Shown: positions 33,001 through 39,000, counted from the first letter of the stretch. The stretch: 64,000 nt of DNA from a candidate division WOR-3 bacterium (GCA_965649295.1 CBFGKH010000001.1:321881-385880), one strand, 5' to 3'. Numbers: made by a program.

Positions 33001-36000
33001 CCGGCCAGAATCGCCGTGTAATCAACGCCCAGTGCCCGCAAGATGAGAATCAGCGCTCCAAAAAGAATCACATAGCCAAGCACGCTGTGTGCCAGCGATA
33101 CAAGGGTCTTGGCCCGACGCTCGTGCGCCTGGCGCAGGAACCGTCGCACGAAAATGCCAGCCAGCAGATAGAGCAACAGTGCTGCGGCCAGCACAATCAC
33201 AACCTGAATGGCCTTAGTGATGTAACCGGCGACTTGCTCTGGCGACCAGAGCCGTTCCCGTAGCTTCAGGCCAAGCTCGCGCCAGAACATGGTCACAGGG
33301 AAAAAACTGACCGCCGGAGCACGAAGGCAATGAGGACTGGTGGGGGGGCTAGTGGAAAGGGCTGAAAGCTGGGTGCGGTCAGGCTCATGCGGTCACCTCG
33401 ATTGTCCCTGGCTCGCCGGCGACCACCGTGCCGATGACCGCAGCAAGGAGCCTGTCCCGAGCTAAGCCGAGGGAGCCTGCCTTCTCGGCCTGCTCCCTGA
33501 AATCGGCCAACCGCTCTGGCCGAAGGCAGACAAGCAGCCCGCCTGAGCTCTGCGACTCCCAGAGCAACTGCCGCAACTCCGGCGCAACGTCGTCAGCAAA
33601 CGACACCTTTGGCCCGAACGAGGTCTCGTTCATCAACACGCCCGGGTCAACAAACTGGGCAGCAAGTTCGCGCACCCCCGGCAGCAACGGCACCGCCTCG
33701 GCCCTAATCTTCATCCGTACTGCTGACGCCTCGGCCATCTCCTGACAGTGGCCAAGCAGTCCGTAGCCAGTGATATCCGTGGCACTCACGACACCACAAG
33801 CGAGCATTATCGTTGATGCGGCCCGATTGAGCCTTGTCATCCACTCCACTGCCGCATCATATAGCTGCCGGTCAACTTCATCGAGAGTCATCATCATCTG
33901 AGCAAAGACGCCGGTGCCGAGCGGCTTGGTCAACACCAGGATGTCACCCGGCTTGGCCGCTGCGTTGGTGACAATTCTGGCCGGGTCAATCTCGCCGGTC
34001 ACGGCCAGACCGAACTTGATCTCCTTCTCATTGAAAGTATGTCCGCCAGCCACGACCGCGCCCGCCTCCTCAACTGCATCCTGCCCCCCGCGCAGTATCT
34101 CACCGAGCACGCGCTTGTCCATCGGCCCGGGAAAGCCGACGATGTTCAGGGCAGTCAGCGGCCGGCCGCCCATAGCATAGACGTCGGATAGCGAGTTCGT
34201 TGCGGCAATCCGGCCAAAAGTGTACGGGTCTTCAACCATCGGGGTCAGCATGTCAACGGTCTGAACGAGCGCCAGGCCATCACGCAGCAGATAGACCCCG
34301 GCGTCGTCAGCCGTGTTGATACCGACCAGCAACCGCGGGTCGGTGGGGCGTTTCAGCCCTGCCAGTGCTTGCGCCAACTGCGCCTTGCCAAGCTTGGACG
34401 CTCAGCCAGCACAGGAGACGGTCGCGAGTATGCCTCTTTTTGCCATCTCGTCTTCTTCCGGTTCTTCATCACTTAGCCGAGTGCTGTCGCAGCACCCGCA
34501 CCTCACCTCGCCGCTGGGTAAGGCCGTGCGCATCAAAGTAATTCAGCAGCGGAATCACATACTTCCGAGTTGCCCCAAGCGCCTGTCTGATTTCCGAAGC
34601 GGTCAGCTCGTCCCGGGTCGCGAAAACGCCGCGGATGACATCTTCGGCATGACGCACCACATCCCGATGGAGTATCACTGATTCACCGACATCAATCAGC
34701 GTGCCCGACTCAAGCAGGGCAGTTCGTACCCGATCTGCCAGCCGCTTCTCGACACCGGCCAGTGCCTCGGCCAGTGGCGGCGGGGCAAATCCCAGCTCCT
34801 GATACAGCGCCGCCACCCGGTCAAACTGTTTCTGCTCGGCCGGACCCAGTTTGAGCGTGTGGGTTGCCAGTCGCACCCGGTCATCTTCGACCACGACCTC
34901 GCCACCTGTTACCAGTCCGGCCAGGACTGTCTCAAACAGCGGCACCGACATTCCGGCCCCGGCTTTGGCCCGCAGTTCGGGTCGCTTCATCCCCAGCCGA
35001 AAAGGGTTGTCGTGGTGGAACCCGGCCAAAGTCTCGCGCACCGCTTCGCGCGCCCGACTTATCACCTGCTCGTGGAGAAGGTACTCTTTTGATTCAAACT
35101 CGACCCGGCGCACTTTGCCGGTTCTGACCAAGTGGTCGAGCATGGCCCGGGCATCGTTGTCGGCGAGGGCCAGCTCGCGCGCGGCTACGGCCAGTGTCTT
35201 GGCTTCAAACCCGGCCTTGAGGAGATATTGTTCCAGCACGCCCCCGGCTTCGCCGCGACGGAGCGCGGCCAGTCGGTCTATGACTGCCTTGTCAAACCGG
35301 CGCTCTTTTTGGGGGTTGGCTTCGAGCACCACGCCGCCGCCGATTGTCCGTTGCGGAGAGAATGTCCGCAGCACAAAGTGGTCGTCCCAGTCACAGACAA
35401 CCGGTTCTTCAAGCCGGCACTGGACAAAGGCCTCGGCTCCGGGCGCCAGTTCCCGGGTGTCCAGAAGCAGCACTCGGCACATCACCTCGGCGGTGCCGAT
35501 GTGAAGTTTGAGCCGGGTCAGGTTCCGCAGCGGCCGTCCGGCATCTTTGAGCAAGTAGCACCAGGCGTTGAACTGCTCGGTTGGCGAGTAGTAGCCGGGC
35601 GTGGCCAGCACGTTGCCGCGCATTGCCGCCTCGCGTTCGATGCCTTGCAGGTTGAGGGCAGCCCGCTCGCCCAGTCCGGCAAGCTCGGCTGGCTGACCGT
35701 GTTTCTGGATGCCGCGGACGCGCACCTCCCGTCGTTCGGGCAGCAGTTCGAGCCGGTCGCCGACTCGGACGCTGCCGGAGAGGACGGTGCCGGCCACAAC
35801 CGTACCGAATCCCTTCATCACGAAGTTGCGGTCAATCGGCATCCGGAAAACGCCCCGGTCCGGCTTGGGCGGCACGGTCTGGGCCAGTTCGACAATCGTC
35901 TGGCGCAGCTTGGGGATGCCGGCGCCGGTCAGGGCCGAGACGACGACGAGCGGCGCGCCCTCAAGAAAAGAGCCGCGCACGAGTTCTAGGGCATCGAGCT

Positions 36001-39000
36001 TGACCAGTTCGAGCATCTCCTCTTCGACGAGATCGGCCTTGTTGATGACGATAATGCCCTTGCGGATGCCCATCAGTCGGCAGATTTCGAAGTGTTCCCG
36101 GGTCTGGGGCATCACACCGTCGTCGGCGGCAATGACGAGCAGCACGAGGTCAATGGTGCTGGCGCCGGCGAGCATGTGGCGGACAAACCGCTCGTGGCCC
36201 GGCACGTCTATCAGGGTAATGTTGTCACCAAGGAACGCAAACCCGAGGTCGGTTGTCATCCCCCGCTCTTTTTCTTCTTTGAGCCGGTCAGGGTCGGTAC
36301 CGGTCAGGGCCCGCACCAGTGCGCTCTTGCCGTGGTCAATGTGCCCGGCTGTGCCAACGACTACGTGCATCGCTCCTAGAACGCCTTTCGCTCGCTGCAG
36401 CCGGCTATGCCCAGCTCGCCCCGGTACTTGGCAACTGTCCGCCGCGAGATGCTGATGCCCTCTTCTTTCAGCCGGGCGCAGATCTCCTCGTCGGTAAGCG
36501 GCTGGTTCTTGTCCTCGGCATTGACAATCGCCTGCACCCGCTCCTTGATGCTTGTCCGTGACCGCTCGCCAGTGCCGGCCTTGAAGAAGTATCCGAGCGG
36601 GAAGATGCCATGCGGCGTTTCGACATATTTGCCGGCAACCGCCCGCGACATCGTTGAGGGATTGACGCCGAGAGTCCGCGCTGCCTGCCGCAGGGTGGCC
36701 GGCTTTAGGTGCTCTGGCCCGTGCAGGAAGAACTCGTGCTGTTCATCAACCACCAGTTGCACGAGCCGCCCGAGGGTCCGGCGCCGCGACTCGATCGCTT
36801 CGAGGAACAGTCTGGCCCGGGCGAGCTTCTCGCGGGCAAAGGCAACCTGCTCGCGTGGATACGACTTGGGGTCCATCAGAATCTCCCGGTACTGGCGCGA
36901 GAGCCGCAGCCTTGGTATCCGGTCGTCGTTCGCCACTACCACCAGCTCGTCACCCCGCCACTCAACCGAGAAGTCCGGCGAGACGTATTCGGTTGCTCCG
37001 CCGGCAAAGCGTCGGGCCGGCCGCGGTTCGAGGCCAACAATCACCCCGATTGCCGCCCGCACCGCTTCCTCGGTCACGCCACAAAGCTGGGCGATTCGGG
37101 CCGTCCCCTTTTTCATCACCAGTTCCCAGTAATCGGCAAGCAGCCGCCGCTCCAGACTGTCCGGGCCGTAGCCGGCCAGCTCAAGCTGGACGATAAACGA
37201 CTCGCGCCGATCCCGGCAGGCAATGCCGCCCGGCTCCAGTCGCTGAATCACGTGCAGTATCGCCATCACCCTTTCGATGGTTGTGCCGCACACCTCGGCA
37301 ATCTCGGCCGGCTCCATTGTCAGAAACCCGTCATCATCGAGTGACTCGATGATGTATTGGGCGGTCCCGACGTCCTCCTCACCGAGAATCGAACGGAGCT
37401 GGGGCAGCAGCCGGTCGGCAAGCGAGGCCTCAGGCCCGGCCGCCAACTCAACACCACTAACATCGTCGTCGCGCTCGGTGCTGGACCCGCTCGACGGCAG
37501 GTAGCTGTCGTCCGGCAGCAGCTCGCCGAGTGAATACTCCTCGCCCGGTTCGGTCGGAATAATCTCTTCCTCGCTACGGGCCGGTTCTGCTGGCGCCGAT
37601 TCCTCGGCACTCTCAGCCGGCTGACGCTCGCCATCAGCCAGCGGATTGTCGTCAGCGTATTCGAGGGCCGGGTTCTTTTCCAGCTCGGTAGTAACCAGCC
37701 GTTCAAGGTCGAGGGCCGTGGCATGCAGAATATTCATCATCAGCATCACGGCCATCCGCTGCTGCAGTTCCAGCCGCTGGACCTGAGTCTGGTCTTGGCT
37801 CAGTCTCATATCCGAAACCGCTCCCCAAGGTAAAGCTCGCGCGCCTTCTCGTCGTTCACCAGTTCCTGGGCCGAGCCCGAGAGCAGCACCCGCGCATCGT
37901 ACATGATGTAGGCCCGGTCGGTGATTTCGAGGGTCTCACGCACGTTGTGGTCGGTTATCAGGATGCCAAGCCCCTCGTCACGGAGTTGCCGGACGATGTC
38001 CTGTATCTCGGCCCGGACAATCGGGTCAATGCCGGTGAACGGCTCATCGAGCAGCAGAAAGGCCGGCCGCGAGGCGAGTGCCCGGGCCAGCTCGACCCGC
38101 CGCCGCTCACCGCCGGAAAGAGTCTCGCCCCGCTGCCGGCGCAGCCCGGCAATGTTGAACTTGACTAAAAGCTCATCGGTACGGCGCTGCTGCTCCGGCT
38201 TAGGCAGCCCGAGCATCTCAAGAATCGCCCGGATGTTCTGCTCCACTGTCAGCTTGCGGAATATCGAAGGCTCCTGCGAGAGATAGCCCAGCCCGAGCCG
38301 CGCTCGCCGGTACACCGGCAGCCGGGTGATATCGTGCTCGCCGAGGGTTATCCTGCCGCCTTCCGGCCGGATAAAGCCGGTAATCATGTGAAAGGTCGTG
38401 GTCTTGCCCGCGCCGTTCGGCCCGAGCAGCCCAACAATCTCGCCCGCGGCCAGCGCCAGCGAGACCTCATCCACCACCCGATGGCCGCCATACCGTTTGA
38501 CCAGCCCGTGCGCTTCGAGCCTTGTCCCGGGCTTCACTCGTTTTCTCCCGTTCGAATCAACCGACCCATCCCGAGCGCGGTCACAGTGATGCGCTCGACA
38601 GCGCCACGGTCAAACTCAATCCTGATTGTCTGGCCTGCTACCTCGACCCGTTCTCCGCCCCGAGTCCGATACTCGCCGCTGGCGCGACCGGCAATCAGCA
38701 CCTCCTGCAAGGCTCCGTCCCGAATCCGGAAGCTCAGCGAATCGCCGCCAGCCCGGCTGACACTGTCCCGCACCGTCGGCCCGCCAATGGCAAGCCCGGA
38801 ATCCGGACCGGCCAGATAGACAATCGTGTCGCAGCTCACCTCGCTGGCCCCGGAATAGAGCCGGACATTGCCGCGCGCCACTGCCCGCGACTCGCGCTCG
38901 TTCCAGACCATCTCCCGGCTGGTGACTCGGGCCGAATCGCCTTCGCGGTGCCAGACCAGAAGCGGCGAACGGTCAACAACCCCGCTGTCACCGGCAAGGT

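Follow-up and report, generated by a model that had tools for sequence, protein, structure and literature searches.

The stretch of DNA analysed here, hereafter the window, comprises 64,000 nucleotides of a candidate division WOR-3 bacterium (GCA_965649295.1, CBFGKH010000001.1:321881-385880; position 321,881 of this contig, C1, is window position 1). Its minus strand carries the central part of a selenocysteine-decoding system of the ordinary bacterial kind, namely the gene for the selenocysteine-specific elongation factor SelB and, downstream of it, a selD gene with a selenocysteine (Sec) codon of its own. The selB gene (window 34469..36370) codes for a protein of 633 residues that is recovered by TIGR00475 with 345.8 bits (E = 4.8e-103; cut-off 242.25) and in Pfam displays the GTP_EFTU, SelB-wing_2, SelB-wing_3 and Beta-barrel_SelB domains. 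The selD gene (paralog 1; window 33385..34446) codes for a selenide,water dikinase of 353 residues, itself a selenoprotein with Sec (U) at residue 15; when its TGA is read through, it matches TIGR00476 with 346.8 bits (E = 1e-103; cut-off 125), the match beginning at residue 10, ahead of the TGA. Direct reading of the sequence places this codon, the single in-frame TGA of the gene, at window 34402..34404 (C1:356284) within the motif SCAGU, and one TGA is present in 35/35 SelD1-type rows of the order. RNAfold predicts a SECIS-like stem-loop at window 34356..34399 on the same strand, with an inner stem GCGC/GCGC and a loop AGUUG 21-33 nt past the U of the UGA (minimum free energy of the 50 nt past the UGA: -16.5 kcal/mol); alone, this stem-loop is unexceptional, falling at the 18th percentile of the background and at the 60th in a single-hairpin test. 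The profile matches and the sequence thus bear out an earlier note on this DNA, which had placed selB and selD at C1:355265-358250 with the selD TGA at C1:356284.

Near the start of the window, also on the minus strand (50..1846), BLASTP and a C-terminal sorting-domain (CTD) HMM identified an Omp28-like T9SS protein with a CxxC motif (TATWCTYCP). It recovers Omp28b, one of the selenoproteins described below, with E = 2.8e-19, a cysteine being aligned to the U column; its gene is free of internal stops (row C1:323010-323708), and the CTD HMM matches it with E = 1.3e-21. Judged from these alignments, it is the cysteine paralog of the Omp28-like selenoproteins. The gene is the first of a conserved Omp28-like/YedF/SelD2 cluster, new to this analysis, that extends past the window start.

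The remaining decoding components are encoded elsewhere in the genome, as had been claimed. ARAGORN detected a tRNA-Sec (C5:88305-88399), the only one of 47 tRNAs with the anticodon tca (UCA); selA (C6:13031-14374) scores 575.6 bits against a cut-off of 267.9 and is without internal stops; and a second Sec-containing selD (SelD2; C1:318352-319386, TGA at C1:319347) reaches 370.1 bits with TIGR00476 against 125. Thus SelA, SelB and SelD all exceed their curated cut-offs and the tRNA-Sec is present. Among SelD2-type orthologs 6/15 are without the TGA.

An independent genome-wide scan with a hexamer gene caller yielded 2204 genes and 84 same-frame gene pairs joined by a TGA. All ten exported candidates of the earlier note were recovered at the implied positions, and its count of 12 selenoprotein genes needs to be raised to 13 by a gene it had missed, C8:60999-61937, which has a signal-peptide-like N-terminus and the motif GWYRCUGDNC. 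The total is therefore two selD genes and 11 genes with signal-peptide-like N-termini, nine of which have a T9SS-type C-terminal domain. Seven families account for the 11 exported clients: three Omp28-like thioredoxin-fold proteins and one TlpA/redoxin-like protein, both with UxxC; three proteins with an N-terminal CBM-like beta-sandwich domain (SGUG or DCUM); one BNR/sortilin-like propeller (SGUG); and one each of a CGGU protein, a GCU repeat protein and a CUGDNC protein. Among 120 other candidates (the 72 remaining same-frame pairs and the best 48 of 113 N-terminal extensions, which were sent to Pfam) none had a Pfam domain across the TGA, and no Grd or Prd domain was seen among the candidates scanned with Pfam; families without a Pfam model would escape such a scan. 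The 72 pairs were set aside as ordinary adjacent genes, and 43 candidates for C-terminal extensions were assessed by eye.

In the TlpA-like protein, which has 473 residues, the Pfam Redoxin (residues 24-146) and AhpC-TSA (25-140) domains both span U61, which lies in the motif FWASTUGTC; this domain stands at the N-terminus, Ig-like domains occupy the middle, and the tail is of T9SS type. With its thioredoxin fold, U as the first residue of the motif and a Cys in one ortholog (L036), the protein shows the hallmarks of the UxxC thiol:disulfide oxidoreductases. It scores 40 bits against the cut-off of 300 of NF041054 (ResA-like WAxxUGC), its WASTUGTC being UxxC rather than UGC, and also falls under the cut-off of the curated ResA model. 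The Omp28-like selenoproteins have UxxC near the N-terminus, two with a T9SS tail and one lipoprotein-like, and match NF045500 ('Omp28-related selenoprotein') and NF033782; since their NF045500 scores (46.9, 37.6 and 25.4 bits) lie under the cut-off of 200, they are relatives and not members of that family. For the CBM-like N-domain a structural model (pLDDT 92.9) retrieved the sandwich domains of CBM61, CBM11, CBM16 and phage tailspikes in Foldseek with probability 1.00 and TM 0.45-0.55, and the Pfam CBM models gave no match to it; as modelled, the domain would adopt a carbohydrate-binding-module-like beta-sandwich fold.

We then surveyed the TGA in 41 genomes from five families of one order. 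It is retained in 12/12 close rows of the CUGDNC family, 15/15 of Omp28a, 10/10 of the CGGU family, 6/6 of the GCU family, 46/50 of the BNR family, 88/95 CBM-like rows outside the source genome, and 32/33 Omp28b rows at E <= 4e-60, the match of the remaining row beginning past the Sec site. The TlpA-like gene, left unsurveyed before, has the TGA in 13/15 relatives, one of the other two being the Cys ortholog mentioned above. In 52 aligned sequences the TGA occupies one common column with a single Cys as the sole exception. Beyond the order, the CBM-like domain retains it in 26/26 relatives from species-representative genomes, including Candidatus Stahlbacteria, TA06 and Eiseniibacteriota. The previous statement that close orthologs keep the TGA thus holds in the same column for all seven exported families. 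Sec/Cys pairs are furnished by the TlpA ortholog and by the Omp28-like paralog within the window; the CUGDNC and CGGU families show no such pair, their distant homologs having a residue other than Cys, or a gap, where Sec stands.

Each exported family further shows a conserved hairpin about 11-20 nt past the UGA. An alignment of 33 CBM-family sequences shows a stem of 6 bp with 185/186 cells paired, four pairs changed on both sides and 22 compensatory cells; its covariation score is reached by 0/500 shuffles. The loop is GGUC, which would match that of the fdhF element. In the six other families the hairpin lies at +13 to +20 and is conserved, with base pairs of the stem swapped between orthologs. 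Taken together, the 13 sites have a lower folding energy than a random set of 600 coding sites (-9.1 versus -5.9 kcal/mol; Mann-Whitney p = 4.6e-5), though site by site the energies are unremarkable (percentiles 0.04-0.60) in this genome of 59% G+C. By the usual comparative criteria of a conserved TGA column, Sec/Cys pairs and hairpins, the exported genes are accordingly to be classed as real selenoprotein genes.

As judged by eye, all 11 N-termini consist of a short basic stretch followed by 12-20 hydrophobic residues, as in signal peptides. The T9SS type A sorting-domain model TIGR04183 exceeds its cut-off of 23 in 3/11 proteins (CBMa 30.5, BNR 30.1, GCU 28.7), CBMb and CBMc scoring under it. 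The genome-specific CTD HMM, grown from the domains of these three proteins of the source genome, matches 9/11 (E = 1e-10 to 1e-22), where nine of ten had been claimed earlier, and leaves Omp28a and the CGGU copy of the source genome without a detected sorting domain; this CGGU copy has a shortened tail, and its orthologs have the full CTD. Genome-wide the HMM finds 146 genes with the domain, nine Sec genes and 137 others, in place of the 75 cargo genes counted before. The SprA/Sov model TIGR04189 matches one frame of 1864 residues (C4:38842-42621) with 445.8 bits summed, which places a component of the T9SS translocon in the same genome. The sorting domain is enriched among Sec genes (at least 9/13 versus about 6% of genes; 6/8 by family), which cannot be chance.

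Could the in-frame TGAs simply be true stops, with the halves representing separate genes, pseudogenes or assembly errors? TGA-joined same-frame neighbors are indeed common in this genome, as the 72 pairs of ordinary adjacent genes attest, and one in-frame TGA, at C6:15266, stands opposite a Trp in a paralog and looks like a nonsense mutation. However, the TGA keeps its column in five families of the order and in other candidate phyla, with proteins 27-74% identical, conserved motifs cross the TGA, the redoxin domain spans it, several of the exported genes run for 64-134 codons past it without a start codon and still with a high coding score, and tRNA-Sec, selA, selB and selD are all in the genome, making this explanation extremely improbable. 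It is likewise very improbable, if slightly less so, that the decoded UGA yields something other than Sec, always or at times, Cys or another residue entering either from a tRNA-Sec misacylated under selenium shortage or by reassignment of the codon in this lineage. The Cys tolerated at the Sec position in the TlpA ortholog and the Omp28-like paralogs, and the SelD2-type orthologs lacking the TGA, would agree with this; against it, TGA terminates 860/2204 called genes and hence is not generally reassigned, the tRNA-Sec is the only tRNA with a UCA anticodon, SelB-type hairpins with covariation accompany the sites, and there would be no point in keeping selA, selB and a pair of selD genes in order to insert Cys.

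A more serious concern is that the exported genes are real and their predominance is a detection artefact, cytoplasmic selenoproteins with Sec near an end or without a profile having been missed. With an N-terminal piece of 14 codons, selD paralog 1 escaped the coding-score filters of our scan when these were used by themselves; Pfam covered only the best 48 of the 113 N-terminal candidates and the C-terminal ones were read by eye; and the family-model searches left out HdrA and MsrB. On the other side, family searches with stops read through found no TGA in FlpD (4 copies), the NiFe hydrogenase, thioredoxin (4), MsrA (1) or the 4 AhpC/TSA copies other than the TlpA-like gene, in line with what had been stated of these families. 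The 'formate-dehydrogenase-like' enzyme said to be present was not found: PF00384 has no match in the genome at E <= 1e-5, leaving it without a detected molybdopterin enzyme, and such an enzyme occurs in only 2/41 genomes of the order, with a TGA in neither. In none of the 120 further candidates does a Pfam domain span the TGA, and two others that were followed were ruled out by their orthologs. We therefore consider such an artefact unlikely. The favored reading, which we regard as quite probable, is that of ordinary Sec decoding in which all 11 detectable non-SelD clients are signal-peptide precursors, an 'outward' selenoproteome; the comparative criteria and the negative results for cytoplasmic families uphold this view as first proposed. 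The outward skew is lineage-wide, with the exported Sec families distributed over all five families of that order.

Under this reading, SelD would make selenophosphate, SelA would convert Ser-tRNA-Sec to Sec-tRNA-Sec, and SelB would deliver the latter to UGA codons that have, about 11-20 nt 3' and within the coding sequence, a short hairpin with a G/U loop. As nine clients end in the C-terminal domain used by type IX secretion, we infer that these selenol proteins are made in the cytoplasm, exported unfolded via the Sec pathway with cleavage of the signal peptide, and then carried by the T9SS over the outer membrane, their end point being the periplasm or the cell surface. The likeliest role of the UxxC families would be thiol/selenol-disulfide exchange in the envelope.

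The decoding apparatus resembles that of Escherichia coli fdhF in comprising SelA, SelB, SelD, tRNA-Sec and a hairpin shortly 3' of the UGA; it differs in its clients, which are exported proteins, the classical client formate dehydrogenase not being found. Selenoenzymes that act outside the cytoplasm are exemplified by FdnG, the formate dehydrogenase-N of E. coli, and the [NiFeSe] hydrogenases of Desulfovibrio, cofactor-loaded redox enzymes that are exported folded by Tat into the periplasm beside many cytoplasmic selenoproteins. The proteins predicted here would likewise act outside the cytoplasm, but they have Sec-type signal peptides by appearance, and most are without a recognisable redox cofactor domain.

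Published surveys describe UxxC thioredoxin-fold selenoproteins such as a Prx-like thiol:disulfide oxidoreductase (PF00578), a thiol:disulfide interchange protein and DsbA-like and DsbG-like proteins (PMC9312934, PMC2398784), and a 'hypothetical protein GOS_C' whose fold is termed Trx-like (PMC2398784). The TlpA-like gene resembles these UxxC proteins in having Redoxin/AhpC-TSA over UxxC and Cys in an ortholog, and differs in its added Ig-like domains and T9SS-type tail. One review lists FdhA, SelD, GrdB, GrdA and PrdB as the most widespread bacterial families (PMC9312934), of which only SelD was found here (FdhA by direct search, Grd and Prd among the scanned candidates), and gives 39 selenoprotein genes for Syntrophobacter fumaroxidans (PMC9312934), with which our bacterium shares anaerobe-type genes (hydrogenase, FlpD/MvhD) and a multi-gene selenoproteome.

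Curated selenoprotein entries already exist for two of the exported families, the Omp28-related one and the UxxC redoxin; new here are five uncatalogued families and the genome-wide outward skew, and our literature searches returned no report of a selenoproteome dominated by extracellular proteins. This bacterium retains the full Sec machinery, seemingly for proteins of its envelope or surface apart from SelD, which would be an unusual use of selenium.

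Genes read through an in-frame TGA were sought across the genome (2.28 Mb in 19 contigs) with a gene caller based on a hexamer coding model; the model was trained on 1022 long ORFs, and the resulting 2204 genes take up 92% of the DNA. This caller replaced an approach in which the 18,780 in-frame TGAs were ranked by codon usage and MFE and which was too noisy and dominated by terminators and antisense frames. As 860 of the 2204 called genes end in TGA, UGA remains an ordinary stop in this organism. Three classes of candidates were collected: 84 gene pairs linked in one frame by a single TGA, genes extended across a TGA at the 5' end, and genes so extended at the 3' end. 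Among the 84, twelve represent the second selD paralog (SelD2), the ten genes for exported proteins reported in the earlier note, all of which were independently recovered, and one gene absent from it. The latter (C8:60999-61937) encodes a protein of 312 aa with a signal-peptide-like start and the motif GWYRCUGDNC (hereafter CUGDNC); the first start codon after its TGA comes only beyond 107 codons. The other selD paralog escaped the coding-score scan because the piece before its TGA has only 14 codons, which shows that such scans are limited where selenocysteine (Sec) sits close to the N-terminus. The 12 selenoprotein genes previously counted are thus borne out, and the total rises to 13 with the CUGDNC gene.

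The Sec-decoding mechanism in this organism is an ordinary one. The gene selB (window 34469-36370, minus strand) encodes a 633-residue protein with the SelB winged-helix and beta-barrel domains and matches TIGR00475 with 345.8 bits against a cut-off of 242, and the first selD paralog (window 33385-34446, minus strand) starts 22 bases downstream of it. Read directly, this selD contains a single in-frame TGA (window 34404-34402) with the read-through N-terminus MAKRGILATVSCAGU; the read-through product scores 346.8 bits with TIGR00476 and the profile match is already under way before the TGA, confirming the presence of both genes where they had been reported. Beyond the window lie the tRNA-Sec (C5:88305-88399), the sole tRNA with the anticodon UCA in the genome, selA (C6:13031-14374) and the Sec-containing SelD2 gene (C1:318352-319386). 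A search of the genome for the tRNA 2-selenouridine synthase gave no match; hence, the second SelD is not accounted for by the tRNA 2-selenouridine trait. The selB and selD genes also close a tight same-strand row (window 33385-39718, minus strand) comprising an LptA-like gene, lptB, rpoN (sigma-54), selB and lastly selD, with gaps or overlaps of 4-22 bases, after which comes a mechanosensitive channel gene.

To follow the Sec codons across the lineage, each exported family was searched, reading through stops and counting them, among 40 relatives that belong to five families within a single order. Exactly one TGA was found in 12/12 close rows of CUGDNC (identity 40-52%), 15/15 of Omp28a (39-61%), 10/10 of the CGGU family (41-63%), 6/6 of the GCU repeat protein (36-41%), 13 of the 15 full-length TlpA-like rows (48-57%), 88 of 95 rows of the CBM-like N-terminal domain (29-74%, own genome left out), which is present as many as eight times in a genome, and 46 of 50 rows of the BNR propeller (E <= 1e-60; one of the 46 has three TAG stops besides). 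For Omp28b the figure is 32 of 33 rows from 29 genomes (E <= 4e-60), the row lacking a TGA beginning downstream of the Sec site. Upon alignment of 52 loci the TGA column, flanked by invariant motifs, is identical in all but one, a TlpA ortholog with a cysteine in its place; the claim that close orthologs keep the TGA therefore holds in 51 of 52 sequences. Outside the order, 26 full relatives were retrieved for the CBM-like domain from species-representative genomes, every one with a single TGA at the same spot, some of them from records titled Candidatus Stahlbacteria, TA06 and Eiseniibacteriota. An Omp28-like CxxC paralog (window about 50-1846, minus strand), whose TATWCTYCP aligns to the EDUGTC of Omp28b, forms with the latter a Sec/Cys pair inside one genome. 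The relatives also display 13 rows of a short TlpA-like paralog of about 270 aa with one TGA (e.g. G003:C12:3313-3771 and G002:C2:18327-18800), which is not among the matches listed for the present genome and may be a further family of exported selenoproteins missing from it.

A hairpin with a G/U-rich loop (GGUC, GUU, GUG, AGUUG, CGUGC, CGGGU or GGC) lies 11-20 nt 3' of the UGA in each family. It is best documented in the CBM-like family, where 33 sequences conform to GGCGRAG-GU-CUYCGCC, with the six stem pairs formed in 185 of 186 cells, changes on both sides at four pairs and 22 compensatory cells. None of 500 shuffles reached the observed covariation and the pairing was lost when the partners were slid; the stem swaps are even visible in the protein (AKVFA versus AEVSA). 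Likewise, the CUGDNC stem reads UCGCUCA/UGAGCGA here and CCGUCG/CGACGG in its orthologs at the same location. As a set the 13 Sec sites fold at -9.1 kcal/mol, versus -5.9 for 600 random in-frame sites (p 4.6e-5), with the individual sites being unremarkable in this G+C-rich genome and the predicted selD hairpin in the window the weakest.

The exported families are diverse in their domains. The TlpA-like protein combines a redoxin domain bearing UxxC with Ig-like domains following it, and the Omp28-like proteins match, far under cut-off, the NCBIfam models for the Omp28 lipoprotein and the 'Omp28-related selenoprotein'. The CBM-like domain is modeled as a beta-sandwich (pLDDT 92.9) with the Sec in the loop preceding the last strand, and its Foldseek matches are carbohydrate-binding modules and phage tailspike sandwiches. 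The BNR protein is a sortilin/BNR propeller scoring above the cut-off of the 'F510_1955 family glycosylhydrolase' model. Tail aside, no model matched the CGGU, GCU-repeat and CUGDNC proteins, and the structure model of the last (pLDDT 56.7, 8 sequences) was too poor for a fold search. One family of the order has genes in which the CBM-like domain is followed, in the same protein, by a region with homology to CUGDNC, and these genes adjoin an Omp28-like Sec gene: at four loci in as many genomes (L218-L221; G035, G028, G040 and G038) one or two such CBM-like Sec genes come immediately after the Omp28-like Sec gene, an arrangement resembling an operon for selenoproteins that are exported. In our genome one of the four FlpD/MvhD genes (C3:126546-127298) is preceded, 124 bases away and on the same strand, by the CGGU gene (C3:126054-126422).

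All 11 proteins of the exported set show, as judged by eye, an N-terminal basic stretch followed by a hydrophobic one, and the start of Omp28a (...C-SDAP...) is shared with a paralog bearing a lipobox. The NCBIfam T9SS type A domain scores above cut-off in three of them and weakly in two, and Pfam matches to FlgD_ig or Por_Secre_tail occur in others. A genome-specific HMM of the C-terminal domain, grown from the three secure tails, detects it in nine of the 11 proteins as well as in 137 further genes; the CGGU copy of this genome has a shortened tail, and three of its orthologs have the full domain. Given that the genome also encodes the SprA/Sov translocon, it is sound to infer from sequence that these proteins are exported and mostly T9SS-sorted, as the earlier note held, with the sorting domain detected in nine and none detected in the remaining two.

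The use of Sec in cytoplasmic proteins was examined as well. The remaining 72 same-frame pairs were translated across the TGA in windows of 240 residues and scanned against Pfam: 53 had matches and none a domain across it, the domains before the TGA finishing at the profile end and those after it opening at profile position 1; a single MFS alignment reaching seven residues past a TGA was discounted. Of the 113 5'-extension candidates, the best 48 were scanned too, and 33 of these had matches, again with no domain over the TGA; 65 further 5' and 43 3' candidates lie outside this profile scan. Family models run against the genome with stops read through recovered FlpD/MvhD (four copies) and the NiFe hydrogenase (profile matched through to its end) without stops, five AhpC/TSA matches with a TGA in the TlpA-like gene only, four thioredoxins with a TGA in none and one MsrA lacking it, HdrA and MsrB being outside this set. 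The molybdopterin oxidoreductase model had no match in the genome (such an enzyme occurs in two of 41 genomes of the order, with a TGA in neither). The statement that the cytoplasmic enzymes do without Sec thus stands for the five families recovered, and the formate-dehydrogenase-like enzyme included in it was not found.

Several candidates were rejected as selenoprotein genes. For C2:157804-158397 (DUF5362) all 26 ortholog rows begin after the TGA, and for the small ORF at C7:3214-3501 (CUKEC) 7 of 12 are stop-free and begin just after it; four of the 12 keep a TGA, three of them with a few matched upstream residues, such that this rejection is not fully closed. The outer-membrane-protein-like gene C6:14934-15626 reads EEWRSL-TGA-RSV where its paralog at C9:75004-75726 has EEWRSTWRSF, with Trp at the site, and by this comparison the TGA at C6:15266 is probably a nonsense mutation or marks a pseudogene. 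Those at C3:188899, 191753 and 194561 are stops within three tandem cassettes (C3:188740-194923), where a gene ending in ...IPSVSAA-TGA is followed ten codons on by the signal peptide of the next; these are repeated paralogous gene pairs rather than selenoproteins. The C-terminal TGA of MsrA (C8:122369) is an ordinary stop as well. One further locus, at a contig end (C5:264-731), shows VMNPLMPKGVEH about every 22-25 residues in translation, which implies repeats of roughly 36 bases in the DNA, set apart by spacers; it looks like a CRISPR array.

The SelD2 gene stands in a co-directional cluster that runs on the minus strand from window 50-1846 past the window start to C1:318352 (L225:10353-13848) and codes for an Omp28-like CxxC T9SS protein, an Omp28-like CxxC lipoprotein, a 218-aa tail-bearing protein, YedF and SelD2. 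The YedF protein matches the 'selenium metabolism protein' model TIGR03527 with 182.7 bits (cut-off 110), and of the 15 rows of SelD2-type orthologs, 9 contain a TGA and 6 do not. Judging by coordinates, 10 of the 16 genomes with a SelD2-type gene have it at a distance of 0.5-1.9 kb from an Omp28-like paralog, which suggests that exported Omp28-like proteins have a part in selenium handling.

According to a 2022 review (PMC9312934), the prokaryotic selenoprotein families with the widest distribution are FdhA, SelD, GrdB, GrdA and PrdB; it also includes UxxC Prx-like, DsbA-like and DsbG-like families and an MtrB/PioB outer-membrane barrel, and the words Omp28, BNR, ResA, TlpA, secreted and signal peptide do not occur in it. 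An ocean survey of 2008 (PMC2398784) describes selenoproteins that resemble secreted proteases, and a 'hypothetical protein GOS_C' that is Trx-like and has UxxC. A full-text literature search, subscription journals not covered, turned up no publication about bacterial selenoproteomes that are exported or involve the T9SS. Two of the families were curated as selenoproteins before, and what appears new is the client list, in which all detected selenoproteins other than SelD are predicted to be exported, together with five families missing from the catalogues checked and the SelD2/YedF/Omp28-like linkage. The reading of this selenoproteome as one turned outward is supported. A bolder and rather doubtful proposal is an order-level 'envelope selenium economy', in which Sec would be almost only extracytoplasmic, placed in T9SS surface proteins including beta-sandwich and propeller domains for which no redox role is known, and the conserved cluster of Omp28-like (CxxC/UxxC) proteins, YedF and SelD2 would couple the surface to the selenium supply; the exported thioredoxin-fold proteins might then capture or reduce external selenium and pass it inward. 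If true, this would be a new mode of selenium use with at least five new selenoprotein families.

Sec is costly and is usually rationalized by the catalytic gain it brings to redox enzymes of the cytoplasm, formate dehydrogenase and glycine reductase being examples. The usual clients were not found in this lineage, yet two SelD proteins, SelA, SelB and tRNA-Sec are kept for exported, mostly T9SS proteins, making it a clean natural case of what a selenol can do outside the cell that a thiol cannot. It also adds several large families that gene callers split in two, with the CBM-like domain spanning three candidate phyla, and selenoproteome surveys based on known cytoplasmic families undercount such lineages. 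Finally, the entry of selenium into bacterial cells is poorly understood; here a SelD paralog and YedF are linked to exported Omp28-like proteins, which gives a lead on selenium uptake that can be tested.
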